From Candidatus Parcubacteria bacterium (GTDB taxonomy: Bacteria > Patescibacteriota > Minisyncoccia > Minisyncoccales > JAGMDC01), in contig JAGMAD010000003.1 in assembly GCA_023130975.1 (NCBI GenBank), positions 129,692 to 193,691 on the forward strand: a stretch of DNA of 64,000 nucleotides, given 5' to 3'. The notes beneath the pieces are model-generated. The model ran no database searches and was not told the DNA's origin. It was given only the letters and a program-made list of their open reading frames with translations. Each line of letters starts with the position of its first letter. Positions within the stretch are counted from its first letter, which is position 1. Made by a program: the position numbers and the translations under genes. Of the stretch, positions 3,835 to 58,664 are shown piece by piece.

Positions 3835-4599
3835 ATGACACGGATTATTTCCATCGCCAATCAGAAAGGCGGAGTTGGAAAATCAAATGTTGCAGTTAAT
3901 CTTCCGGTTTTTTTAAGCGCTAAGGGAAAGAAAGTTTTGTTAGTGGATATGGATCCTCAGGCAAATGCTACTTTGAGTTTAGGCATTAACTGCCGCAATT
4001 TGCCTCTTTCTATTTATAATGTTTTAATGGACCAGATTACTCCTTCAGCTATTATCAGGAAGACCTCGTTTTTTGGATATGATATTATGCCGGCTTCTCC
4101 GGATTTGGCTGGTGCTACTGTAGAATTAGTAGAAGCAAAAAATCGAGAGTTCAAATTAGCTCAAATTTTAAAAAAAGTTGAAGAACCATACGATTTTATT
4201 ATCATTGATTCTCCTCCGAGTTTAGGAATTCTAACCCTTAATACCTTAGTTGGTTCCAAAGAGGTTTTAATTCCGGTTCAATGCGAATATTTGGCTTTGG
4301 AAGGATTAGGACAACTTTTAGATACAATTGCCTTAGTGAAAAATAATCTTGGTCAAGATTTAAAAATTGCCGGCGCTCTATTAACAATGTATAATAGAAA
4401 AAATCGTCTTTCCAGGGACGTAGCTAAAGAAGTTAGAAGGAATTTTCCTGGCTATGTCTTTGACAGCGTTATTCCCAGAAGCGTGGCTTTAGCTGAAGCG
4501 CCCAAATATGGCCAGACCATTTTACAATATGCTCCCGGCTCTCAAGCAGCCAAGGCCTATAGAGAATTAGCCGAAGAACTTATCAACAGAAATGACTAA
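3835..4599 (+). CDS. parA: ParA/Soj chromosome-partitioning ATPase
   Basis: N-terminal KGGVGKS deviant Walker A and ParA-like length. Start placed at the ATG downstream of the tRNA. Confidence 0.85.
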   Translation: MTRIISIANQKGGVGKSNVAVNLPVFLSAKGKKVLLVDMDPQANATLSLGINCRNLPLSIYNVLMDQITPSAIIRKTSFFGYDIMPASPDLAGATVELVEAKNREFKLAQILKKVEEPYDFIIIDSPPSLGILTLNTLVGSKEVLIPVQCEYLALEGLGQLLDTIALVKNNLGQDLKIAGALLTMYNRKNRLSRDVAKEVRRNFPGYVFDSVIPRSVALAEAPKYGQTILQYAPGSQAAKAYRELAEELINRND

Positions 4600-4724
4600 T
4601 AACTAATTCCTAATTACTAATCAAATCCCAATGACCAATGACTAAATGACTAAAAACTTTTAGACATTAGACATTTTGGAATTAGACATTGATTAGAAAT
4701 TAGACATTAGAAATTAGAAATTCC
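4600..4724. repeat. direct-repeat (iteron-like) spacer between parA and parB
   Basis: There are 3 copies of AATGAC(C/T)AA and 4 copies of TTAGACATT plus AGAAATT repeats. parA and parB are usually adjacent. Confidence 0.4.
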
Positions 4725-18384: not shown

Positions 18385-18470
18385 TTTAGATAATAGATAA
18401 TAGATGATAGATAAGTATTGACATAATTCTTTTATTTTATTACCATTAAAATATACAAAAATTAAAAAAT

Positions 18471-18599
18471 ATATAAAATAAAGATTTAGATAATAGAGAT
18501 TAGAATTTAGGTAATTTTTTATCTAACATCTAACATCTAATATCTAAAATCCAATTATGGCTGAGAAAGAAAAATTTGAAAGAGGAAAAACCCATCTTA
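18471..18599 (+). repeat. copy A of a 129-bp perfect duplication (tuf promoter, leader and first 14 codons)
   Basis: Identical to 19688-19816. Confidence 0.85.
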
Positions 18600-19627: not shown

Positions 19628-19687
19628 ATTCAACTTAGATAGGGCATTTCTTAAATTAACAAAGAATATAAAATAGAATATAAAATA

Positions 19688-19816
19688 GAATATAAAATAA
19701 AGATTTAGATAATAGAGATTAGAATTTAGGTAATTTTTTATCTAACATCTAACATCTAATATCTAAAATCCAATTATGGCTGAGAAAGAAAAATTTGAAA
19801 GAGGAAAAACCCATCT
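19688..19816 (+). repeat. copy B of the 129-bp duplication (native tuf promoter/5' end)
   Basis: Identical to 18471-18599. It is preceded by 3x AATATAAAATAG tandem repeats. Confidence 0.85.
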
Positions 19817-20975
19817 TAATATTGGTACTATTGGTCACGTAGACCATGGTAAAACCACTCTTACAGCAGCTATTCTGCATGTTTTAAGGTTAAAAGGTCT
19901 TAAGGCATCAGAGAAAGCAGTGGAGCAAATTGATTCTGCTCCAGAAGAAAAAGCCCGTGGTTTAACTATTAACATTGCCCATTTAGAGTATGAGACAGAT
20001 AAAAGACACTATGCTCATATTGATTGTCCGGGCCATGCTGATTACATTAAGAATATGGTTACTGGTGCCGCTCAAATGGACGGAGCAATTTTAGTGGTTT
20101 CGGCTGCTGATGGTGTTATGCCTCAAACCAGAGAGCATATTTTGCTTGCTCGCCAAGTAGGATTATCTCAAATAGTGGTGTTTTTAAATAAATGCGATAC
20201 TGTAGATGATCCTGAGATAATTGATTTAGTTGAGTCAGAAGTAAAAGAGCTTTTAAAGAAATACGAATTTCCAGGAGATGAAATCCCAATTGTTCGCGGT
20301 TCAGCTCTTAAAGCCCTGGATGTAAAATCAGCTGACGATGAAGCCGCCAAACCAATTTTGGATTTAGTTAAAGCAGTAGATGATTACTTTCCTGAACCAA
20401 CTCGGGATATTGATAAACCATTTTTAATGGCTGTTGAGGATGTTTTCTCTATTGCTGGAAGAGGAACTGTTGCTACTGGCAGGATTGAGCGAGGAATAGT
20501 TCATCCAAACGATGAGGTAGAAATTGTTGGTTTTAAACCTACTCAAAAAACAGTGGCAGTGAGCGTGGAAATGTTTAATAAGATGCTTGATGAAGGAAGA
20601 GCCGGTGATAATGTCGGAATTTTACTTCGCGGACTCAAGAAAGAAGAGGTGGAAAGAGGACAAGTTTTAGCAAACCCCGGCAGCATTACTCCTCATACTG
20701 AATTTGACGGTGAAATTTATGTTTTAACCAAAGAAGAAGGCGGAAGACATTCTCCTTTTTTTGCCGGTTATAAGCCGCAATTTTACATTCGAACTACTGA
20801 TGTTACTGGAGATGTTGCTTTGCCAGAAGGGACAGAAATGGTTATGCCTGGAGATACTGTTAATCTAAAAGTTAAATTAATAGCTCCGGTTGCCCTTCAA
20901 GAAAAACAAAGATTTGCTATAAGAGAAGGAGGCAAGACCGTAGGCGCAGGAGTAGTGACGAAGATCATTAAGTAA
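19776..20975 (+). CDS. tuf: elongation factor Tu
   Basis: [18 protein letters not shown] and NKCD motifs; 399 aa. Confidence 0.9.
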
Positions 20976-21504: not shown

Positions 21505-22107
21505 ATGAAGTTTATCTTGGCAAAAAAATTAGAAATGTCACAGATGTTTGATGAAAAAGGCAAGGTCATTCCAGTGACCTTAATTGAAGCCGGACCTTGT
21601 TTTATCACTCAAATAAAAAACAAAGACAAGGATAAATATGAAGCAGTTCAGCTTGGTTTTGAAAAAATAACCAAACAGAAGAAAATAAAAAAAACAATGA
21701 AAGGAAAAGAATATAAATACATCAGAGAATACAAAATTGACGAGAACATTTCTCGTCAATTAAAGGTGGGAGATGAAATCAATGTTTCTGTTTTTCAAGA
21801 AGGGGATAAAGTAAAAATTTCTGGAATTTCTAAAGGAAAAGGATTTCAGGGAGCAGTAAAAAGATGGGGATTTCATGGAAGAAACGCTACTCATGGAGTT
21901 AAGCATGAACAAAGAACATTAGGTTCAGTTGGAAGTTCTTATCCAGAAAGAGTAATTAAAGGAAAAAAAATGCCCGGTAGAATGGGTGCCGAGCGAGTCA
22001 CAGTTAAAAATTTAAAAATAGCAAAAATTGACAAAGAGAATAATCTATTAGCAGTGAAAGGCGCAATACCAGGCCGACGCGGCACATTGCTTGAAATTAG
22101 AGGATAA
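21505..22107 (+). CDS. rplC: 50S ribosomal protein L3
   Basis: L3 pattern (GKGFQGAVKRWGFHG). Confidence 0.85.
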   Translation: MKFILAKKLEMSQMFDEKGKVIPVTLIEAGPCFITQIKNKDKDKYEAVQLGFEKITKQKKIKKTMKGKEYKYIREYKIDENISRQLKVGDEINVSVFQEGDKVKISGISKGKGFQGAVKRWGFHGRNATHGVKHEQRTLGSVGSSYPERVIKGKKMPGRMGAERVTVKNLKIAKIDKENNLLAVKGAIPGRRGTLLEIRG

Positions 22108-22216
22108 TTTCCAGAATTTCTAATTTCTAATAAATTTCTAATTCTTTAATTTTTAATTGAAAATTGGAGCATTGAAAATTGATTGAAAATTGATAATTGA
22201 TAATTGAAAATTTATC
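22108..22216. repeat. heptamer tandem-repeat spacer: (AATTTCT)n then (ATTGAAA)n
   Basis: 7-bp periodic AT repeats between rplC and rplD. Confidence 0.6.
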
Positions 22217-23350: not shown

Positions 23351-24220
23351 ATGAAAAAGTATAAACCAACAACACCAGGAAGGAGAGGAATGACCAAGGT
23401 TGAATCTTCTCAATTAACTAAGAAAAAACCTGAAAAAGGTTTGCTTTCAGTAATTAAAAAAAGGGGAGGAAGAAATCTAAAAGGAAGAATCACAATCAGG
23501 CATAGGGGCGGCGGAGCAAAAAGGATGTATAGACATATTGATTTTGGTCAGGAGAAAGTTAATATTTCAGCAAAGGTCATTGCTTTAGAATATGATCCCA
23601 ATCGTTCTGCTTTTATTGCTCTTTTGGAATATCAGGATAAACCCCCCACCACTTTTCAGGGAAAAGTGGTGGGGGGTAAAGAAAAAAGATATATTTTGGC
23701 TCCTCAAGGATTAAAAGTGGGCGATGAAATCATTATTTCAGAAAAAGCAGGACTCAAGCCGGGAAATAGAATGAAATTAAAAAATATTCCAGTCGGAACT
23801 TTGATCTATAATGTTGAACTTGAGCAGGATAAAGGAGGAGTTATCGTAAAAGGAGCGGGCACCACAGCAAAGGTTTTGGCTCAGGAAGGAAGATATACTC
23901 ATCTTGTTTTTCCTTCTTCTGAAATTAGGAAAGTGCCCAAGGAATGTTTTGCTTCAATAGGCATAGTTTCCAATCCCGAACATAAGTATGTTACAATAGG
24001 AAAGGCAGGTAGAACACGTTATAAAGGCAAAAGGCCCCATGTTAGGGGAACGGCAATGAATCCTGTTGACCATGCTCATGGCGGCGGAGAAGGAAGAACT
24101 GGGATTGGACTAAAACATCCGAAAACTGCTTGGGGTAAGCCAGCTTTAGGGGTAAAAACAAGAAAGAAAAAATGGACAGACAAACTTATTATTAAAAGAA
24201 GAAAAAAGAAAAAGAAATAA
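23351..24220 (+). CDS. rplB: 50S ribosomal protein L2 carrying a 13-aa in-frame palindromic insertion
   Basis: L2 motifs (KPTTPGRRGMT, GGGEGR). The insertion KPPTTFQGKVVGG is encoded by a perfect hairpin at 23641-23677. Confidence 0.85.
   Translation: MKKYKPTTPGRRGMTKVESSQLTKKKPEKGLLSVIKKRGGRNLKGRITIRHRGGGAKRMYRHIDFGQEKVNISAKVIALEYDPNRSAFIALLEYQDKPPTTFQGKVVGGKEKRYILAPQGLKVGDEIIISEKAGLKPGNRMKLKNIPVGTLIYNVELEQDKGGVIVKGAGTTAKVLAQEGRYTHLVFPSSEIRKVPKECFASIGIVSNPEHKYVTIGKAGRTRYKGKRPHVRGTAMNPVDHAHGGGEGRTGIGLKHPKTAWGKPALGVKTRKKKWTDKLIIKRRKKKKK
23641..23677. repeat. GC-rich perfect hairpin (CCCCCCACCACTTTT-loop-AAAAGTGGTGGGGGG) inside the rplB ORF
   Basis: The 15-nt arms are identical to the 16S h44 tip (51882-51896 / 51971-51985). 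Confidence 0.8.
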
Positions 24221-24223
24221 CCT

Positions 24224-24346
24224 AATAAATTTTCAATTTTCAATTTTCAATTTTCAATGAATTTTCAATGATTTAATTTTCAATTAGAAATTAAAGAATT
24301 AGAAATTTAATAGAAATTAGAAATTAGAAATTAGAAATTTTGGATT
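24224..24346. repeat. heptamer tandem-repeat spacer: (TTTTCAA)n then (AGAAATT)n
   Basis: Reverse-complement arrangement of the 22108-22216 element. Confidence 0.6.
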
Positions 24347-25958: not shown

Positions 25959-26058
25959 GCGATAGCGAAAACCCCGCCCTCTATGCTTTTATAGAGGAGG
26001 AATAAAAAATTAATTATTGCTTAGAGGGCGGGGTACTCGCCTTCTAACAAAGACTCGT

Positions 26059-26473: not shown

Positions 26474-26653
26474 ATGAAAACAAAAGAATTACAACGAAAA
26501 TCCCAATCAGAACTTCAGCATATTTTAATAGAAGATCGTGAGAAATTACGGCAGTTGCGTTTTGATTTAGCTTCTGGTAAGGTTAAAAATGTTAGAGAAA
26601 TTCGAAAAATTAAAAAAGAAATTGCCCAAGCATTAACAATTTTAAAGCAATAG
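26474..26653 (+). CDS. rpmC: 50S ribosomal protein L29 (59 aa)
   Basis: MKTKELQRKSQSELQHILIEDREKLRQLRF... in the expected slot between rplP and rpsQ. Confidence 0.6.
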   Translation: MKTKELQRKSQSELQHILIEDREKLRQLRFDLASGKVKNVREIRKIKKEIAQALTILKQ

Positions 26654-26659
26654 TAATAT

Positions 26660-26846
26660 AAGAACCTGCCTCGCTAATGCTCGGCAGAACCTTGATTCCT
26701 TCGGAATTAAGAACCTGCCTCGCCAATGCTCGGCAGAACCTTGATTCCTGCCTGTCGGCAAGGCAGGCGCTAATGTATAAATATATAAGAACCTGCCTCG
26801 CTAATGCTCGGCAGAACCTTGAATGCTTCGCATTTAATCTTGAATT
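26660..26846 (+). repeat. three tandem AGAACCTTG-family units forming a composite ~150-bp 5'-region shared with rpmE
   Basis: Units at 26660-26695, 26709-26744 and 26787-26822. The stretch 26709-26856 is ~95% identical to the reverse complement of 45450-45600. Confidence 0.75.
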
Positions 26847-28835: not shown

Positions 28836-29222
28836 ATGGATCCTATCACTGATATGTTCAACAGAATAAAAAATGCTCAAGCCGTATTGAAACCTACGGT
28901 GAGTATTCCTTTTTCAAATTTAAAATATGAAATTGCTAAAATTTTAGAGAAAGAAAAATATGTCAAAAAAATAGAGAAAAAAAGAAGAAAAACAAAAAAG
29001 ACAATAGAAATTTCTCTTAAATATAATAAAAATATTCCGGCTATTATTGAATTGCGAAGAATCTCAAAATCAGGACAAAGAATTTATCTTCCAGTTCAGG
29101 AAATTAAGAAAGTAAAAGGAGGATTTGGTTTGTCTATTATTTCTACATCAAAAGGACTAATGACTAATAGAGAGGCAAGAAAACAGAAAGTCGGAGGTGA
29201 GATAATCGCTGAAATCTGGTAA
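28836..29222 (+). CDS. rpsH: 30S ribosomal protein S8
   Basis: MDPITDMFNRIKNAQ start. Confidence 0.85.
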   Translation: MDPITDMFNRIKNAQAVLKPTVSIPFSNLKYEIAKILEKEKYVKKIEKKRRKTKKTIEISLKYNKNIPAIIELRRISKSGQRIYLPVQEIKKVKGGFGLSIISTSKGLMTNREARKQKVGGEIIAEIW

Positions 29223-29376
29223 TCCGCTCGGGAATTAGTTTTTGGTACACGCAAATTTCTCCAGCGGAAATTTGCTGCTACTCGCGAATTACCCCCTCCT
29301 TTTGCGCAAGCGCGAAAAGGAGGGGGACCAAGCCAATTCGCTGCGGATTGTCCCAAAAACCAATTTCCTCGCTTAA
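29223..29376. mobile_element. MITE-like element with ~17-bp terminal inverted repeats and a variable GC hairpin core (copy 1)
   Basis: Ends CGGGAATTAGTTTTTGG...CCAAAAACCAATTTCCTCG. Core hairpin CCCCTCCTTTTGCGCAAGCGCGAAAAGGAGGGG. The paralog at 46502-46648 has a different core hairpin. Confidence 0.65.
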
Positions 29377-37552: not shown

Positions 37553-37571
37553 AAAATCTTTAAAATTCTAT

Positions 37572-37605
37572 AAGAACCTATCTCGCTAACGCTCGGCAGA
37601 ACCTT
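37572..37605. repeat. AGAACCTTG-family repeat unit (extended ~70-bp version shared with 40973-41045)
   Basis: taagaacctatctcgctaacgctcggcagaaccttctaatt. Confidence 0.6.
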
Positions 37606-37668
37606 CTAATTATTTCGTTCGGTTAAAATACAAAAGTGAACTTTTGTATTTTACCTTCACTCATAATT

Positions 37669-40086: not shown

Positions 40087-40974
40087 ATGATAAAAGCATT
40101 AACATTAAAAGAATATGTGAAAAAAAACGATAAAGAACTGGCAGGTTTGATTGTAAAGATGGCTGGTATTGCAGAAAGAATAAGCCAGGAGCTTCCATAC
40201 AGGCGAGGCAAGGCAGATACAAAAAATGTATTCGGAGAAAAGCAATTAGTTGCAGATAAATGGGCCGATAAATTTATTATTAAAGAATTAGACAAATCAG
40301 GATTAGTTAAGGAAATGGTATCGGAAGAGCAGGAGGATGTTGTTAAGCTTAATGATAAAGCATTGTTTAGTATTACTTTAGATCCATTAGACGGTTCTTC
40401 AAATATTGAAAGCAATAATTTAGTTGGCACAATTTTTGGTATATATAAAAAAGACCTGCCAGCTAAAGGAAGGCACCAGGTAGGCGCGCTGTATATTTTA
40501 TATGGTCCCGTAATGACTTTAGTTTATGCAACAAGAAATGGAGTTAACGAATTCCTGCATACCAGAAAAGGATTTGTGCTTAAGGAGAAAAATATAAAAC
40601 TTCCAAAGCAAGGTAAACTATATGGGGTTGGGGGACTGCGTAAGGATTGGCTTCCCGGGTTTAGAAAATATATTAAGGGATTAGAAACAGAGGGATATAA
40701 ATTAAGATATGGAGGAGCATTTGTTGGTGATTTTAATCAGATTCTCCATTATGGCGGGATTTTTGCTTATCCAGCGCTTAGTACCAAGCCAAATGGGAAA
40801 TTAAGATTATTAGCCGAAAGCAATCCAATGTCATTTATTATAAAGCAAGCAGGCGGTGCTTCAACCAATGGCGCAGGGTCAATATTAGATATTGAGCCAG
40901 AAAGCATTAATCAAAGAGTTCCAACTTATGTTGGCAATAAAGGTCTCATTAAAAATTTAGAAAAAATATTATAA
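40087..40974 (+). CDS. fbp: fructose-1,6-bisphosphatase class I
   Basis: LDPLDGSSNI metal-binding motif. Confidence 0.75.
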   Translation: MIKALTLKEYVKKNDKELAGLIVKMAGIAERISQELPYRRGKADTKNVFGEKQLVADKWADKFIIKELDKSGLVKEMVSEEQEDVVKLNDKALFSITLDPLDGSSNIESNNLVGTIFGIYKKDLPAKGRHQVGALYILYGPVMTLVYATRNGVNEFLHTRKGFVLKEKNIKLPKQGKLYGVGGLRKDWLPGFRKYIKGLETEGYKLRYGGAFVGDFNQILHYGGIFAYPALSTKPNGKLRLLAESNPMSFIIKQAGGASTNGAGSILDIEPESINQRVPTYVGNKGLIKNLEKIL

Positions 40975-41008
40975 GAACCTGCCTCGCTAACGCTTGGTAG
41001 AACCTTCT
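40973..41008. repeat. AGAACCTTG-family repeat unit overlapping the fbp stop codon
   Basis: taagaacctgcctcgctaacgcttggtagaaccttct. Confidence 0.6.
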
Positions 41009-41085
41009 AATTGTTTCGTTTAGTCAAAATATAAAAATAAATTTTTCTATTTTCTCTCTCACTTACAATTATAAAAAAAATAACC

Positions 41086-45706: not shown

Positions 45707-46501
45707 ATGACGGATAAAAAAGAAACCAAAGAGAAACAAAAAAAAGAAAAGGAAACCAAAAAAGAAAAACCAAAGGAAGAAAAAAAAGAAGTTAAAAAAG
45801 TTGCCAAGAAAGCACCTGATTTTAAAATTGATGTAGATGAAATGTTGGCAGTCGGAGTTCATTTCGGTCATCGGACTTCCCGTTTGCATCCCAAAATGGA
45901 ACCATATTTAGCTGGTGTCAAGAATACGGTTCATATCATTGATCTAGAAAAAACAGCGGAAAAATTGAAAGAAGCCCTGAAGTTCATCCAGGAAATTATT
46001 TCCGAAAATAAGGTCTTGCTTTTAGTGGGGACAAAAATTCAGATTAAAGATTTAGTTAAAGAAATTGCTCAAGAATGTGAATTACCTTATGTTAACGAAA
46101 GATGGCTGGGCGGCACTCTGACTAATTTTGAAGTAATTTCAAAAAGAGTTGGATACTTAAAAGAAATAGAAGAAAAAAAGGCAAGCGGAGCATGGGAAAA
46201 GTACACAAAGAAGGAAAGGATTAAAATGAATAGGGAATTTCAGAATCTCAAGACAAAATTTGAAGGTCTTAAAACACTCTCCAGAGTTCCTGATACTATG
46301 TTTGTTTTAGATATAAGAAAAGATGATTTAGCAGTGAAAGAAGCTAAAATGAAAGGGATAAAAGTAATTGCTATTTGTGATACCAATACCGACCCTAGTT
46401 TGATTGATTATCCTATTCCAGCAAATGACGATGCTATTTCATCTGTGAAATATATTTTAGAAAAGGTTAAAGAAGCAATACTAAAAACAAAGGCAAAGTA
46501 A
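45707..46501 (+). CDS. rpsB: 30S ribosomal protein S2 with a ~40-aa Lys/Glu-rich N-terminal extension
   Basis: S2 core from MLAVGVHFGH. Confidence 0.85.
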   Translation: MTDKKETKEKQKKEKETKKEKPKEEKKEVKKVAKKAPDFKIDVDEMLAVGVHFGHRTSRLHPKMEPYLAGVKNTVHIIDLEKTAEKLKEALKFIQEIISENKVLLLVGTKIQIKDLVKEIAQECELPYVNERWLGGTLTNFEVISKRVGYLKEIEEKKASGAWEKYTKKERIKMNREFQNLKTKFEGLKTLSRVPDTMFVLDIRKDDLAVKEAKMKGIKVIAICDTNTDPSLIDYPIPANDDAISSVKYILEKVKEAILKTKAK

Positions 46502-46648
46502 TACGCTCGAGAATTAGTTTTTGGTACACGCAAATTTCTCCAGCGGAAATTTGCTGCTACTCGCGAATTGCCGAGCACTCAACAAGTTGAGTGCTCGAAC
46601 CAAGCCAATTCGCTGCGGATTGTCCCAAAAACTAATTCCCTCGCTTAA
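46502..46648. mobile_element. MITE-like element copy 2 (same TIRs as 29223-29376, different core hairpin)
   Basis: CGAGAATTAGTTTTTGG...CCAAAAACTAATTCCCTCG. Core CGAGCACTCAACAAGTTGAGTGCTCG. It starts directly after the rpsB stop. Confidence 0.65.
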
Positions 46649-46662
46649 AACTTTCAAGTTTT

Positions 46663-50181: not shown

Positions 50182-50283
50182 AAAGATGAAAGAAATAAGG
50201 AAAGTTCTTTGAAAATTTTTAGATTAAGAATTGAGTAAATTTAATTGGTTTTTTAGAGTTGTCCCGATTTTATTTGAGAGTTC

Positions 50284-50315
<32 letters not shown>

Positions 50316-50707
50316 GATAAGGCATGCAAGTCGAGGGGTCACCTTCGGGTGGCACCGGCAAACGGGTTAGTAACACGTGGATACATACCCTAAAGACTCG
50401 TATAACTCGGAGAAATCCGAGCTAATTCGAGATAGTCTGGTAGTCTATTTTTGGAAGTCAACTATAAGAATTTTTAATTTTCAATTTCTAATTTTTATTT
50501 AATTTCTAATTTTCAATGTTTAAAAAGCAACCCTACGGGGAATCCCGAACTTCATTCGGTCTAGAAATCATTAAAAATTTATTAAAAATTAAGAATTAGA
50601 AATTAGAAATTTTCTGCGTATTTAATAATAGATAAAGTTGATTTTTAGGAATAGGCTACCAGTAAAGGTTATACTTTGTATTTCCGCTTTGGGACTGGTC
50701 CGCGGCT

Positions 50708-50743
<36 letters not shown>

Positions 50744-52018
50744 GATGACGAGTAGGGGGCATGAGAGTGTGTTCCCCAACAATGGTACTGAGAACGGACC
50801 ATACTCCTACGGGAGGCAGCAGTCGAGAATATTGGGCAATGGGCGAAAGCCTGACCCAGCGACGCCGCGTGCGGGAAGAAGGTCTTCGGATTGTAAACCG
50901 CTTTTATTAAGGAACAATCCGCCAGTCGGCGGATGAGCGTACTTGATGAATAAGGAGCCGCTAATCACGTGCCAGAAGCGTCGGTAATACGTGAGCTCCA
51001 AGCGTTATCCGGATTTATTGGGCGTAAAGCGTCCGTAGGCGGTTTGAAAAGTCTTTGGTTAAATCCTAGGGCTTAACCTTTGGACTGTCAAAGATACTTT
51101 CAGACTAGAGGGTGTTAGAGGCTGATGGAACGGTCGGTGTAGGGGTGAAATCCGTTGATATCGACCGGAACACCGAAAGCGAAGGCATTCAGCTAGTGCA
51201 ACCCTGACGCTGAGGGACGAAAGCGTGGGTAGCGAATGGGATTAGATACCCCAGTAGTCCACGCTGTAAACTATGGACACTAGCTATTGGTAGTGTCGAC
51301 CCTATCAGTGGCGAAGCTAACGCGTTAAGTGTCCCGCCTGGGAAGTACGAGCGCAAGCTTAAAACTCAAAGGAATAGACGGGGACTCACACAAGCGGTGG
51401 ATCATGTGGCTCAATTCGACGATAAACGAAGAACCTCACCAGGGCTTGACATGCTAGTGAAATCCCGACGAAAGTTGGGACTACCCACAAGGACACTAGC
51501 ACAGGTGCTGCATGGTTGTCGTCAGCAGGTGTCGTGAGACGCTCCTTTTAATAGGGAAACCTGCGCAACCCTTGCCCTATGTTTTACTTGTCATAGGGGA
51601 CTGCCCGGGATAACTGGGAGGAAGGTGAGGATAACGCCAAATCAGCATGGCCCTTTGATGCCCTGGGCTGCACACATGATACAATGGCCGGTACAATGGG
51701 CTGCTTAACCGCAAGGCGAAGCAAATCCCTTAAAGCCGGTCCCAGTTCGGATTGAGGTCTGCAACTCGACCTCATGAAGCCGGAATCGCTAGTAATCGCC
51801 AATCAGCTATGTGGCGATGAATATGTTCCTGAGTCTTGTACTCACTGCCCGTCACACCAAGAGAGCTGGCAGTACCCGAAACCCCCCACCACTTTTCGTG
51901 AAGATATTTAGATTAAGAAGAATTTTTGAAAAAGTCTATTTTAAATTCTTTTGACGGTTTATAATTCATGAAAAGTGGTGGGGGGCTAAGGTAAGGTCAG
52001 TAATATGGGTGAAGTCGT

Positions 52019-52821
52019 AGATGTAATCTACTTGTTGCGACTCTTGAAAGGCAACTTTCAGGAAAAAACTTGGCTATATGCTGGAACATCTGTGTTATAA
52101 TAGAGTAATATGAGTAAAAGTTTATACGCAGACAATCAGCAGGGAAGTCTCCGCCAGCTGGCGGATGACCCCTCAGAGACTACACGCCGAGCCCCTCTTT
52201 CTAAAAGAGAAATTCAATCTTATTTTCTTGGAGCTATACATGATGGAACATTTAGTAGTAATCAAAGATTTCGAATTTCACAGAAAGGTACCCAATGGCT
52301 TAAATTTTTACAAAAACTTTTTGGCAAACTCGGTTACAATTCATGGATTTATAAAGAAGGTAAAAACAGAAAAGTTTATGTGTTAGAAACTTTAGCAGAT
52401 TTTTTAGATTTCAGATTTGATCCTTCGCGATTAAATACAAAAGAAGAAAAGATTGGTTACATAAAAGGATTTTTCGATGCCGAAGGTGGCATTCCTAGAG
52501 ATCACAAAGCAAGATTTTATATTCAGTTGACCCAGAATGATGAAGAAAAGCTCAAAAAATTAAAAGTAATGCTTAGTGATTTAGGAATAAAAACAGGAAA
52601 AATTCATAACCCAAGCCAAAAAGTAGATCCTGATTATTGGAGAATGTATGTTTTAGCAGGTTCACAAAAAACATTCGTAGAAAAAATAGGATCATGGCAT
52701 CCAAGAAAGATAAGAACCTTGAATCAAAGATTCAAGAACCTTGATTCCTTCGGGATTAAAAATTTTAGAAAAGAGGGTGAAGATATAGTCCATGCTCTAT
52801 AGCGATATAGGGACAAATATG
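52019..52821 (+). mobile_element. group I-type intron in the 16S gene (between E. coli-equivalent U1498 and A1499)
   Basis: The 5' exon ends ...GAAGTCGT, the intron ends with G, and the 3' exon resumes AACAAGG. The intron carries a LAGLIDADG ORF. Confidence 0.65.
52110..52802 (+). CDS. LAGLIDADG homing endonuclease (intron-encoded)
   Basis: Two LAGLIDADG-like motifs, FLGAIHDGTF and IKGFFDAEGGI. Confidence 0.7.
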   Translation: MSKSLYADNQQGSLRQLADDPSETTRRAPLSKREIQSYFLGAIHDGTFSSNQRFRISQKGTQWLKFLQKLFGKLGYNSWIYKEGKNRKVYVLETLADFLDFRFDPSRLNTKEEKIGYIKGFFDAEGGIPRDHKARFYIQLTQNDEEKLKKLKVMLSDLGIKTGKIHNPSQKVDPDYWRMYVLAGSQKTFVEKIGSWHPRKIRTLNQRFKNLDSFGIKNFRKEGEDIVHAL

Positions 52822-53015
52822 AACAAGGCATGCGTAGCGGAAGCTGTGCATGGATCATTACATTCTAAAAGTGTTGACTAAAGTTGAAGAGCGAGAATTC
52901 TCTCTTTAACTTTAAGGTATTAATCGAACACCTTAAAGATCGATTTCCTTCTTCGCCTCGCTACGCGAGGTCTCGGAGGACAAACTCGGGACAACTCTAA
53001 GAAACTTCGTAAGAA

Positions 53016-53052
53016 CCCCGCCTGTCCTAATAGACAGGCGGGGCTATTTTTG
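53016..53052 (+). terminator. intrinsic terminator after the 16S gene
   Basis: ccccgcctgtc-ctaata-gacaggcgggg followed by CTATTTTT. Confidence 0.6.
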
Positions 53053-53061
53053 ATAAAATAA

Positions 53062-53327
53062 GGGTGCGGAGTTCGAACCAGAATCAATTTAGCGGAGCGA
53101 ATTTTATTCAGATTCAAGGCGCGAGGAGCGTAATGTATCCAAAGGATACATAAGCGACGAGCAACAAAGAATCTGGATAAAATTCTCCCGTCCAAAGGGA
53201 AGCGAAATAATGGCTGATTTCTTTGTCGCTCCTTCTTGAAGTATTAGTAATACTCCTTCGTCGTCGCTTCTTGAAATCAGCTCTTTATTTCGCTTCTAAA
53301 CTTGATTCTGGTTCGAACTCCTCACCC
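53062..53327. repeat. structured ~265-bp element bounded by 26-bp inverted repeats in the alaS leader
   Basis: GGGTGCGGAGTTCGAACCAGAATCAA at 53062-53087 pairs with TTGATTCTGGTTCGAACTCCTCACCC at 53302-53327. Several internal hairpins are present. Confidence 0.5.
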
Positions 53328-53333
53328 TCAATT

Positions 53334-55136
53334 ATGAAATCCTCTGAACTTCGGAAAAAATTTTTAGATTTTTTTAAAAAAAACAGGCATATCATTACTC
53401 CCTCAAGCCCCCTTTTACCTTCTGATTCTACGGTTCTATTTACTACGGCTGGAATGCAGCAGTTTTCCCAATACTTGGCTGGAGAGAAAGATCCTTTAAA
53501 AGATTTCAAAACCAGACATTTAACTGATTGTCAGAAATGTTTTCGCAGCGATGATATTGAAGAAGTAGGAGATGATACGCATAATACCTTTTTTGAGATG
53601 TTGGGAAACTGGTCAATTGGCCAGGATGAGAAAGGAAATTATTTTAAACAAGGAGCAATTAAATATGCTTTGGAATTTTTAATAAATGAACTCAAGTTAG
53701 ATAAAAATAGATTTTATATCACTATTTTTCGAGGCGATAAAGAAATTTCCAGAGATAATGAGTCAGAAAAAATCTGGCAGAAATACGATATTTCCAAAGA
53801 GAGAATCAAAGAGTTTGGAGAAGAAGATAATCTCTGGGGGCCAGTAGGAGAAGTTGGTGTTTGTGGCCCAAATTCGGAGATTCACTATGATAGAGGAAAA
53901 GAATTTGGTTGTGGTAGAAAAGATTGTGGCCCTAATTGTCCTTATTGTAAAAGAATTGTAGAGATATGGAATCTTGTTTTTATCCAGTATTATAAAGATG
54001 AAAATGGAAATTTTCAGAAGCTTTCTCAAAAGAGCGTAGATACTGGAATGGGTTTTGAAAGAGTTTTAGCAATTTTAGAAAACAAACCTTCAGCTTATGA
54101 AACTGATTTATTTTTACCTATTATTCAGGAAATAGAAAAACTTTGTTCTAAAAAATATGAAGAAAACAAGAAAACTTTCAGAATAATAGCGGATCATATT
54201 CGGGGCTCTGTTTTTTTAATCAGCGAAGGATTTTTTCCCTCTAATGTAGAGCAAGGATATGTTTTAAGGCGGATTTTGAGAAGAGCTATCCGTTATGGTA
54301 AAATAATAGAAGCAAAGCCAGGATTTTTAATTCCCTTAGCAAATAAAACCATTGAGATTTATAAAAATATTTATCCCGAAGTTTTTTCCAAGCAAGCAGA
54401 TATTTTAACTGTTATTCAAAAAGAAGAAGAAAAATTTGAAAAGACATTAGAAAAAGGACTAAAAGAATTTAAAGCTCAAAGCTCAAAGCTCAAAGTTCAA
54501 AACCACAACTTAAAACTCAAAACTATTTCAGGTAAAGTTGCTTTTAACTTATATCAGAGTTTCGGTTTTCCTTTAGAAATGACAAAAGAGATGGCTAAAG
54601 GAGAAGGTTTAGAAGTGGATGAGAGAGAATTTCAGGAAGAATTAAAAAAACACCAAGAGATTTCCCGGGCTGGTAAAGAAAAAAAGTTTGGCGGCGGAGG
54701 CAAGTTTTCGCCAAAACTCCATACTGCTACTCATCTTCTTCATGGTGCTTTAAGAGAAATTCTGGGGCAAAAAGTCAAACAAATGGGTTCTGATATTACT
54801 TCAGAGAGATTAAGGTTTGATTTTTCTTTTGAAAGGAAATTATCTTCAGAAGAGCTCAAAAAAGTTGAGGACTTAGTTAATAAAAAAATAAAAGAAGATT
54901 TAGAAATTAAACAAGAAGAAATGTCTTTAAGGCAAGCATTAAACTCAGGTTCCTTGGCTTTTTTCAAGGAAAAATACCCTAAAAAAGTAACCGTTTATTC
55001 AATCAATAGTTTTTCTAAAGAAATCTGCGCTGGTCCTCATGTAAAAAGAACTGGAGAATTGGGAAAATTTAAAATTATAAAAGAAGAATCAAGCAGTAGC
55101 GGCATTAGAAGAATAAAAGCCATTCTTGAGAAATAA
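53334..55136 (+). CDS. alaS: alanyl-tRNA synthetase lacking the C-terminal C-Ala domain
   Basis: MKSSELRKKFLDFFKKNRHIITPSSPL...FTTAGM and an editing domain with HTATHLLH and CAGPHV. Start placed at the ATG at 53334. Confidence 0.85.
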   Translation: MKSSELRKKFLDFFKKNRHIITPSSPLLPSDSTVLFTTAGMQQFSQYLAGEKDPLKDFKTRHLTDCQKCFRSDDIEEVGDDTHNTFFEMLGNWSIGQDEKGNYFKQGAIKYALEFLINELKLDKNRFYITIFRGDKEISRDNESEKIWQKYDISKERIKEFGEEDNLWGPVGEVGVCGPNSEIHYDRGKEFGCGRKDCGPNCPYCKRIVEIWNLVFIQYYKDENGNFQKLSQKSVDTGMGFERVLAILENKPSAYETDLFLPIIQEIEKLCSKKYEENKKTFRIIADHIRGSVFLISEGFFPSNVEQGYVLRRILRRAIRYGKIIEAKPGFLIPLANKTIEIYKNIYPEVFSKQADILTVIQKEEEKFEKTLEKGLKEFKAQSSKLKVQNHNLKLKTISGKVAFNLYQSFGFPLEMTKEMAKGEGLEVDEREFQEELKKHQEISRAGKEKKFGGGGKFSPKLHTATHLLHGALREILGQKVKQMGSDITSERLRFDFSFERKLSSEELKKVEDLVNKKIKEDLEIKQEEMSLRQALNSGSLAFFKEKYPKKVTVYSINSFSKEICAGPHVKRTGELGKFKIIKEESSSSGIRRIKAILEK

Positions 55137-56407: not shown

Positions 56408-56515
56408 ATGGGAGATTTAAATAATAAAAATTCAAATAAAATAAGAACCTGCTTCGCAGAACCTTGTTTTCTCAAATGAGAGATTCAAATAGCAAAAATT
56501 CAGATAAAATAAGAA
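56408..56515 (+). repeat. duplicated infA start region flanking an AGAACCTTG-family unit
   Basis: ATGgGAGATTtAAATAatAAAAATTCAaATAAAATAAGAA (56408-56447) versus ATGaGAGATTcAAATAgcAAAAATTCAgATAAAATAAGAA (56476-56515). The unit CCTGCTTCGCAGAACCTTG lies between them. Confidence 0.65.
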
Positions 56516-56926: not shown

Positions 56927-57048
56927 CCTTTTGCTTCGCAAAAGGAATTTCTAATTTCTAATTTCCAATCAATTTCTAATTTTCATTGAAAATTCTAAAA
57001 TTGAAAATTTAATGAAAATTGAAAATTGAAAATTGAAAATTAAATTTT
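56927..57048. repeat. terminator-like hairpin plus heptamer spacer: (AATTTCT)n then (ATTGAAA)n
   Basis: ccttttgc-ttcg-caaaagg followed by 7-bp periodic repeats. Confidence 0.55.
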
Positions 57049-58527: not shown

Positions 58528-58664
58528 AATTTTAAAAATTTTCAATTTTCAATTTTCAATTTTCATTAAATTTTCAATTAACTAATTTTCAATGAATTAT
58601 TTAGAAATTGAATCATTAGAAATTTAATAAAAATTAGAAATTAGAAATTAGAAATTTAATTTGT
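58528..58664. repeat. heptamer spacer: (TTTTCAA)n then (AGAAATT)n
   Basis: Same composite as 24224-24346. Confidence 0.6.

Follow-up and report, generated by a model that had tools for sequence, protein, structure and literature searches.

We analysed a stretch of 64,000 nucleotides (nt) from Candidatus Parcubacteria bacterium (assembly GCA_023130975.1, contig JAGMAD010000003.1, forward-strand positions 129,692 to 193,691), in which the same GC-rich hairpin arms occur in rplB, the gene for ribosomal protein L2, and at the tip of helix 44 (h44) in the 16S ribosomal RNA (rRNA) gene. The whole 64,000-nt stretch is referred to as the window, and all coordinates in it are window positions. The rplB gene (23351-24220, plus strand) encodes a protein of 289 amino acids (aa) with the Pfam domains Ribosomal_L2_N and Ribosomal_L2_C, and hosts a minimal, gene-less hairpin copy at 23641-23677 (plus strand), which consists of a perfect 17-bp stem (ACCCCCCACCACTTTTC / GAAAAGTGGTGGGGGGT) closed by a 3-nt AGG loop. 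The second host, the 16S rRNA gene, lies at 50270-52866 (plus strand). Its copy has the same orientation and is built from a 5' arm at the h44 tip (51882-51897), an AT-rich interior of 72 nt that extends the helix through GTGAA/TTCAT (51898-51969) and a 3' arm (51970-51985). Neither copy, at 35 nt and 104 nt respectively, holds an open reading frame (ORF).

Hairpin copies in rplB and the 16S rRNA gene

The 15-mer CCCCCCACCACTTTT has exactly four sites in the window, 23642-23656 (+), 23662-23676 (-), 51882-51896 (+) and 51971-51985 (-), against 0.17 expected. None of 100 dinucleotide-preserving shuffles reached four matches, and no fifth site appeared in the window when up to two mismatches were allowed. 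These counts bear out the sequence-only reading of this DNA, which had placed the same 15-nt arms in both genes and considered a chance origin very unlikely, except that the common arm is really 16 nt long (CCCCCCACCACTTTTC / GAAAAGTGGTGGGGGG, with 16/16 bases identical). The 17th base pair of the rplB stem, A...T, lies beyond this common arm. That reading had also called the hairpin identical at both sites, which is correct for the arms and incorrect for the form, since the rplB copy comprises 35 nt of arms only while the 16S copy measures 104 nt from arm to arm (51882-51985) with its 72-nt interior. When folded as RNA, the rplB hairpin reached -32.9 kcal/mol on either strand (z = -6.6).

The rplB copy is an insertion relative to related genes. 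It is in frame and encodes KPPTTFQGKVVGG, so the extra L2 residues seen in the sequence alone proved to be a 13-residue insert between YQD and KEKRYIL, at a position that corresponds in the alignment to the D98/G99 junction in a solved bacterial uL2. The nearest L2 proteins, with 88% identity by the search tool and 93% in a multiple alignment, lack the 13 residues, and more distant L2 relatives likewise do not have the insert. Two relatives show unrelated length changes at the same loop, and therefore the loop tolerates variation. At the DNA level, the empty site in a relative (L003; L numbers denote loci fetched for this analysis) is GGACAAAGAA, whereas the window has GGATAAA[35-nt hairpin]TAAAGAA. 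By this comparison the insertion amounts to 39 nt (13 codons), namely the 35-nt hairpin and a duplicated TAAA. The left TAAA (23638-23641, plus strand) and the right TAAA (23677-23680, plus strand) form a putative target-site duplication, as suggested by the L003 empty site and by the enrichment of 4-nt duplications across the family, with the hairpin and the right copy making up the 39 inserted nt. The insert was found in independent assemblies of four samples from one study (Logan SRR13892597 and SRR13892598; ENA SAMN18200502 and SAMN18200503). An AlphaFold2 model of L2 with the insert, made from a 15-sequence alignment, had a mean predicted local distance difference test (pLDDT) score of 39, which is unusable, and it supports no claim here.

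The h44 copy is an insertion relative to the one relative whose 16S gene was compared, a gene found through its synteny with alaS (L2 86% and AlaRS 79% identical to the window proteins). The h44 segment of this relative measures 87 nt compared with 173 nt in the window, that is, 86 nt less, and its tip reads TCCCGT-CTTG-ACGGGG, without the ACCACTTTT arms. An ancestral origin of the hairpin would have refuted the idea of a mobile insertion, and with the closest L2 genes and this h44 both free of the insert, the idea survived at both sites. In the Rfam alignment, the 16S arms fall on the distal h44 stem, with 79 extra nt against a 4-nt loop in the model. The insert folds as a lengthened helix at a variable rRNA helix tip, which is one of the features of an rRNA intervening sequence of the kind removed by RNase III. 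The outermost C/G run of this copy may overlap the native stem and is the only part that could be shared with it. No target duplication was found at the 16S copy, and the copy is present on the ENA scaffold of one of the four samples. Rfam searches returned no group I or group II intron match at 23641-23677 or 51882-51985, and no known RNA family at the hairpins or at the 'group A' composite described below, where E values up to 10 gave chance microRNA-like matches only.

The 16S gene also holds an AT-rich palindromic insert, described in the last section, and an intron-like insert bearing a LAGLIDADG gene. The latter, of about 800 nt (52021-52821), splits the gene right after GAAGTCGTA and contains a 230-aa LAGLIDADG_3 ORF (52110-52802); the gene picks up again at AACAAGGCATGCG, and the Rfam alignment of the 16S forced its 3' end onto intron sequence. 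At 52852-52865 the 3' end reads GGATCATTACATTC, not GGATCACCTCCTT, and the relative has the same change (L009, around 9800); therefore, the anti-Shine-Dalgarno sequence is altered in this lineage. Downstream of the gene (52866-53334), a terminator-like hairpin at 53016-53043 is followed by alaS and not by a 23S rRNA gene, and therefore the rRNA genes are unlinked.

Occurrence, size classes and GIY-YIG units of the arm-flanked family

Using the 16-nt arm as the query, a genome scan with one genome per species returned at least 119 loci. All searches of the sequence collections used exact arms. Of the 119 loci listed, 29 form perfect palindromes whose 15-nt arms enclose 5-77 nt, and roughly ten others had one or two mismatches in one arm. 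A scan of Joint Genome Institute (JGI) metagenomes for arms enclosing 4-8 nt found 64 copies, spread over 62 contigs. The host organisms of the arm-flanked copies include Patescibacteria, Omnitrophota and others. A profile built from family copies recovered only the two known copies in the window and had no match in the loci of the relatives or in a further 17 kb of the source scaffold, and no perfect copy with a 3-33-nt or 250-280-nt interior was found in viral contigs. The family's sole trace on a viral-labelled contig is a set of three tandem variant copies with longer arms (CCCCCCACTACTTTTTCGTATATATTTCCCGAGTC...) at 11300-11640 of L017, a 111-kb IMG/VR contig.

The copies sit in RNA genes, in protein genes and between genes. 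RNase P RNA copies occur in at least five lineages, with one site at the P15-P17 arm, placed there by Rfam in L036, and another adjoining the GAGGAAAGUCCG motif, which by eye we take to be P3. One Saccharibacteria 23S rRNA gene has two copies, of which one lies at the consensus native C-run/G-run helix, and a further copy resides in a group I intron of a 23S gene. Copies in intergenic DNA are found in both orientations. Protein hosts confirmed by Pfam, all with the insert in frame, are UvrA, GluRS, MiaA, trigger factor, FtsZ, LepA, MurB, MnmA, RecG and T2SS-F; a single domain match spans the insert in GluRS, MurB and MnmA, and in UvrA, FtsZ and RecG the insert lies outside or between matched domains. 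All three reading frames are used (PPTTF..KVVGG, PHHF..KSGGG and PPLF..KWWG), and direct reading found the arms free of stop codons in every frame. The FtsZ gene of another organism has the same KPPTTFQGKVVGGK peptide as the L2 of the window, together with the same TAAA duplication.

In two proteins that contain a perfect copy, a decayed second copy was also observed, as the peptide TPPTFSAEKVGGK at residues ~540-555 of FtsZ in L138 and as PATTFAEQKLGG at residues ~150-165 in L180; therefore, old insertions persist and erode in place. Single-arm matches in L064, L067 and L112 are the 3' ends of transfer RNA (tRNA) genes, followed by CTTTTC. Two of them come after a CTGTAAATC anticodon loop and are presumably tRNA-Tyr-like (...GGTTCGAATCCTCCCCCCACCA), with the arm resembling the acceptor end plus CCA. 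We treat the likeness of this tRNA-Tyr 3' end, CCCCCACCA, to the arms as a coincidence.

The family is defined by perfect terminal inverted repeats of 15-17 bp, (A)CCCCCCACCACTTTT...AAAAGTGGTGGGGGG(T), and falls into three size classes. The smallest copies, of 34-38 bp, are arms only. Copies of a middle class (~50-65 bp) have a conserved interior of 20-35 nt, and these interiors align with one another (..TTTGGCTAA..CTYTTCTG) between protein-gene copies from the candidate phyla radiation (CPR) and intergenic copies from Omnitrophota. In the large class, of ~290-300 bp, the 'loop' is a GIY-YIG gene of the UPF0213/YhbQ type that encodes 83-89 aa and is packed tight against the arms. The size classes are homologous.

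The GIY-YIG gene of the full-length relatives had not been foreseen in the sequence-only reading. In L122, a 'group A' copy, the 270-nt interior is an 89-aa GIY-YIG ORF. Two homologues of it (72% and 57% identity), picked blind to their flanks, were both bracketed by exact arms, and tblastn of the GIY-YIG family against the fetched loci gave four more units, which lay on contigs that had entered the analysis because of a minimal hairpin close by. The units available as DNA, seven in all, measure 290-300 bp, with the start codon 0-11 nt from the left arm and the stop codon overlapping the right arm or at most 6 nt away, and the gene is arm-bracketed in every case with readable DNA. Several database GIY-YIG proteins begin with a translated arm, and one that starts with ...LTPHHF probably represents an eighth unit. 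The catalytic columns Y (GIY), Y (YIG), R, H and E are invariant in the family alignment, and among solved structures the UPF0213 proteins 1zg2 and 1ywl come closest.

Two RNase P RNA genes, L036 and L178, are identical at 84 of 91 flank positions (~92%) and differ at the P15 site, where one has a 291-bp gene-bearing unit and the other a gene-less hairpin of 36 nt. They also differ in the presence or absence of a hairpin at two more sites, assigned by eye to P3 and P12. These differences suggest recent mobility. A further RNase P RNA gene, in L218 (1475-2330; Patescibacteria GCA_038063095.1), contains three family members, namely variant hairpins at 1583-1709 and 1898-1960 and a gene-bearing GIY-YIG unit at 2010-2301 in the P15-17 region. 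This unit adjoins an IS200-like Y1_Tnp gene that is flanked by different hairpins of its own, CTATGGAAGTCCGACTTCCATAG.

The 'group A' copies are found in Omnitrophota, Marinimicrobia and other non-CPR metagenome-assembled genomes, in which the arm hairpin forms the central arm of a conserved three-hairpin composite of ~200 nt (L042, L052, L053, L073, L075, L077, L081, L091, L094, L099, L126, L128, L130, L122 and L214). The composite has the flanks ..ACAACTTACGG..CGTAAGTTGT.TGCGCGAATTAA-arm..arm-TTAAATTCAGCCA.ACAACTTAG.., lies between housekeeping genes and folds with z = -10.6. We considered and rejected an integron attC site for it, the flanks being TAAGTT ... AACTTA against the attC consensus RYYYAAC ... 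GTTRRRY and the copies being single ones between housekeeping genes and not arrays between gene cassettes. Xer/dif-like sites and DNA-uptake sequences were likewise set aside, as their core motifs, array structure and density do not fit.

After duplicates were collapsed, 61 distinct insertion events were available for flank analysis; their sites have unrelated flanks, and insertions recur at two RNase P sites. In 8 of the 61 events the arms are immediately flanked by a perfect direct repeat of 4 nt, compared with 0.67 expected from permuted flanks. Repeats of 5 or 6 nt were found in 0 of 61 events, and shifted offsets gave 0-2. The 4-nt repeats are TAAA (four events, including the window), TCAA (three) and CCAA (one), and no other sequence occurs. 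Immediately beyond the G-run, 53% of flanks have T and 31% have C, and the flank consensus is Y-W-R-R, with TAAA, TTGA and TTTA the commonest. The arms thus recur at numerous unrelated places, significantly more of which than expected have a 4-nt target duplication. Together with the empty sites and with more than 60 other sites that have the same arms in unrelated genomes, this upholds the earlier suggestion of a small mobile palindromic element that tolerates insertion into essential genes. For most copies in coding hosts, the arm-to-arm length is 2 modulo 3 (35, 62, 65 and 83), to which a 4-nt duplication is added, and therefore the frame is restored. L170 contradicts this frame rule: a 34-nt copy with a perfect TTTA repeat makes 38 nt at residue 132 of an open frame of 720 aa, a length that would be expected to shift the frame.

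A probable mobile palindromic family and its candidate nuclease

We read the hairpins in rplB and h44 as two gene-less, non-autonomous copies of one small mobile palindromic family with GIY-YIG-bearing relatives, and give this reading a probability of roughly 85%. On this reading, the window copies are selfish passengers and not host functions. The element would move as DNA and leave a 4-nt duplication at T(A/C)AA-like sites, and in RNA genes it would replace short native helix tips with C...G stems. The cutting would be supplied by the element-encoded GIY-YIG nuclease, the candidate mobilising enzyme, which would probably recognise the arms in hairpin or cruciform form and would also act in trans on the gene-less copies. 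Such recognition is plausible because the structure-selective nuclease Slx1 is stated in a review to belong to one family with E. coli YhbQ (PMC7017083). Copies would survive only where they are harmless. The arms are free of stop codons, the 39 nt keep the rplB frame, the L2 loop varies in length among relatives and the 16S copy only lengthens a peripheral helix. Going one step further, we tentatively propose, with doubt somewhat outweighing confidence, that the hairpin-bracketed UPF0213/YhbQ-type genes form a new class of minimal autonomous mobile element of ~290 bp, an 85-aa nuclease in a 15-bp hairpin. The nuclease would recognise its own arms in hairpin or cruciform form and move the unit, together with its gene-less derivatives, by cut-and-paste or by copying.

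Several observations weigh against this picture. The perfect duplication is kept in only 13% of events. The copies in 16S h44, 23S, RNase P P12 and LepA sit at a native short C...G stem or a CCN-rich stretch, so that the copies in RNA genes and LepA look like a replacement of native sequence and not a simple insertion; therefore, more than one integration route may exist. The insertion status of the h44 copy depends on the 16S of one relative, and its 72-nt interior, considered as a possible decayed GIY-YIG gene, scores no better than shuffles against the GIY-YIG genes (z <= 1.4). The 81 kb of source scaffold contain only 2 copies and are free of GIY-YIG genes. Because the searches demanded exact arms, the apparent conservation of the arms across phyla is biased by ascertainment. 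The role given to the GIY-YIG protein is a case of guilt by association, and GIY-YIG enzymes are not known to act as transposases.

Another enzyme is a serious rival as far as the mechanism is concerned, though we consider it unlikely. The same mobile palindromic family could be moved in trans by a DDE transposase with a 4-bp stagger or by a Y1 enzyme of the IS200/REP-associated tyrosine transposase (RAYT; REP, repetitive extragenic palindromic) type that acts on single-stranded hairpins, with the GIY-YIG gene being only a frequent passenger or a homing endonuclease nested in the loop. Terminal inverted repeats with a 4-nt target duplication are the classical DDE signature, the loops accept foreign DNA, as in the nested copy of L057 and the 72-nt interior of the 16S copy, and a Y1_Tnp gene adjoins one GIY-YIG unit. 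However, no arm pair encloses a transposase in ~220 loci (1.6 Mb, most of them fetched for their arms), no DDE or Y1 partner with the same ends was found among these loci, and in L218 the hairpins around the Y1_Tnp gene differ from the arms. Furthermore, every flank-readable GIY-YIG gene of the subfamily is packed tight between arms, which looks like one unit and not a random passenger, and a 35-bp element is too short for end synapsis as double-stranded DNA.

The remaining alternatives concern the origin of the hairpins. That the hairpin is a motif selected by the host, for instance a protein-binding site, an RNase III site, an rRNA mimic by which the S10 operon would regulate itself or a DNA-uptake sequence, would fit its very stable structure, its conservation across phyla and its location in highly expressed RNAs and a ribosomal protein operon. 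We regard this as very improbable in view of the mixed hosts (several classes of RNA, proteins in three frames and intergenic DNA in either orientation), the low density of 2 copies per 81 kb, the variable presence among close relatives, the existence of target duplications, the tie to a nuclease gene and the persistence of decayed copies in proteins such as the FtsZ of L138. A direct transfer between the two window sites, in which the rplB hairpin was copied from the organism's own h44 tip or the reverse by ectopic gene conversion or templated break repair, appears slightly less probable still. The two copies do share 16/16 arm bases and are both preceded by AAA, and Rfam puts the 16S arms at the native position of the distal h44 stem, but the same arms occur in RNase P RNA, 23S rRNA and dozens of protein genes in organisms with an unrelated 16S, and the relative's h44 lacks them. 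Moreover, the 3-nt loop of the rplB copy is not derivable from the 16S interior, and the identical KPPTTFQGKVVGGK insert with its TAAA duplication is present in the FtsZ of another organism. Some library or assembly errors do yield perfect palindromes, and a chimeric palindrome or an adapter would be the corresponding artefact. We give this explanation next to no weight, since four samples yielded the insert in independent assemblies, and since it is in frame with a target duplication on both sides and belongs to a family seen in data from many unrelated studies and assemblers.

With the mobile family retained as the preferred reading, we compared it with known systems. The family behaves like Rickettsia palindromic elements and mitochondrial GC clusters, but with smaller copies, a spread across phyla and a link to a very short nuclease gene. 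The Rickettsia palindromic elements, credited to Ogata et al. in 2000, are reportedly short palindromic selfish repeats that lie in frame in protein genes and also in RNA genes, where they are said to be tolerated as a harmless peptide or helix. They are ~100-150 bp long and restricted to Rickettsia, and no enzyme is known to be associated with them. The present family resembles them in being a palindromic repeat placed in frame in ORFs and also in RNA genes, a likeness of mode and not of compared sequences. It differs in going down to 35 bp, in occurring in CPR bacteria, Omnitrophota and others, in its 4-nt target duplication and in its GIY-YIG relatives. Fungal mitochondrial GC clusters, or double-hairpin elements, are GC-rich mobile palindromes in AT-rich DNA that occupy intergenic, rRNA and in-frame protein sites. 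In contrast to our family, they are organellar, unrelated in sequence and without a nuclease gene in the loop.

Miniature inverted-repeat transposable elements (MITEs), for example the Correia elements of Neisseria, share with the family the terminal inverted repeats, a short target duplication, a non-coding nature and size classes derived by deletion. However, the longer relatives here encode a GIY-YIG nuclease and not a DDE transposase, the smallest copies are the repeats alone (35 bp), the copy number per genome appears low (2 in 81 kb of the source scaffold) and copies lie within genes as often as between them. REP elements are palindromes of 20-40 bp that are thought to be handled as single-stranded hairpins with a flanking tetranucleotide. 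They are extragenic, number hundreds of copies and bear a GTAG or CGTC tag, whereas the copies described here are few and often intragenic and have T/C-rich flanks with TAAA or TCAA repeats; no conserved GTAG or CGTC tetranucleotide was found at the hairpin foot, and the sole nearby Y1 gene has different hairpins. The free-standing and intron-borne GIY-YIG homing endonucleases (I-TevI, the Seg proteins), like the structure-selective nucleases Slx1 and YhbQ, have the same catalytic core as the protein of our units. Homing endonucleases spread to one cognate site by homologous repair, in contrast to the more than 60 unrelated sites with target duplication here; the protein of the units has only 83-89 aa and no separate DNA-binding domain. 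The window copies also differ from a homing endonuclease gene in being without a nuclease ORF, which is found only in relatives elsewhere.

As far as its retrieved parts go, a survey of CPR rRNA genes describes GIY-YIG ORFs within insertions of rRNA genes that are not group I or group II introns, and many short, ORF-less, uncharacterised insertions, most of them at the top or base of a stem-loop (PMC11270868). The 16S copy is very probably one of these short insertions. A term search of the survey text available to us gave no mention of inverted repeats, hairpins or palindromes, and its retrieved parts contain no link between gene-bearing and gene-less insertions, no target duplications and no RNase P RNA or protein-gene hosts (PMC11270868). 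The family appears not to have been described as such: no description was met in literature searches on the arm sequence, on UPF0213/YhbQ proteins and on MITEs or palindromic elements of Patescibacteria, a body of literature in which subscription journals mostly fell outside the scope.

These results suggest that even the most reduced bacterial genomes carry a selfish element, which persists in frame in essential proteins (L2, FtsZ, UvrA, LepA, aminoacyl-tRNA synthetases) and at helix tips of 16S, 23S and RNase P RNA. Its copies distort 16S and protein alignments, lengthen gene calls and may explain some of the 'uncharacterised short insertions' known from the rRNA of CPR bacteria. The close coupling of the arms to an 85-aa GIY-YIG nuclease points to a role for the UPF0213/YhbQ family and possibly a very small system for sequence- and structure-specific DNA cutting and insertion. 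If the autonomous GIY-YIG element is real, small GIY-YIG proteins, a large orphan family, would acquire a function, and unexplained short insertions in housekeeping proteins, in RNase P RNA and in CPR rRNA would be accounted for.

Other repeats in the window

Two MITE-like copies, at 29219-29376 and 46498-46654, share 96% identity over their 75 outer nt. Their central GC hairpins, beside GCGAATT, differ (CCCCCTCCTTTT..AAAAGGAGGGGG in one and CGAGCACTCAAC..GTTGAGTGCTCG in the other), and their design resembles that of the 'group A' composites, in which the arm hairpin occurs in other phyla. The sequence-only reading had given the MITE cores at 29223-29376 a design related to that of the rplB hairpin; the design is shared, the cores have no homology to the arm sequence, and the profile search added no window copy. 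Between rpsC and rplP, at 25971-26034, there is one more GC hairpin, which has A-CCCC...GGGG-T ends and consists of ACCCCGCCCTCTA, a 38-nt loop and TAGAGGGCGGGGT.

An AT-rich palindromic repeat family (AATTTCTAATTT... / ...AAATTAGAAATT) is present at the intergenic positions 4582-4723, 22092-22213, 24219-24340, 56930-57042 and 58528-58657, and one more copy, at 50460-50612, lies within the 5' part of the 16S gene. It is a second, unrelated palindromic element that entered this rRNA gene. The window further contains a 55-nt intergenic motif, ATAAGAACCTGCCTCGCTAATGCTCGGCAGAACCTTGA, repeated at 26651-26837 (three copies), 37563-37622, 40964-41023 and 56434-56466, and a 142-nt direct duplication with 96% identity (18458-18599 and 19677-19818), whose copies lie upstream of two genes, one of which is tuf.

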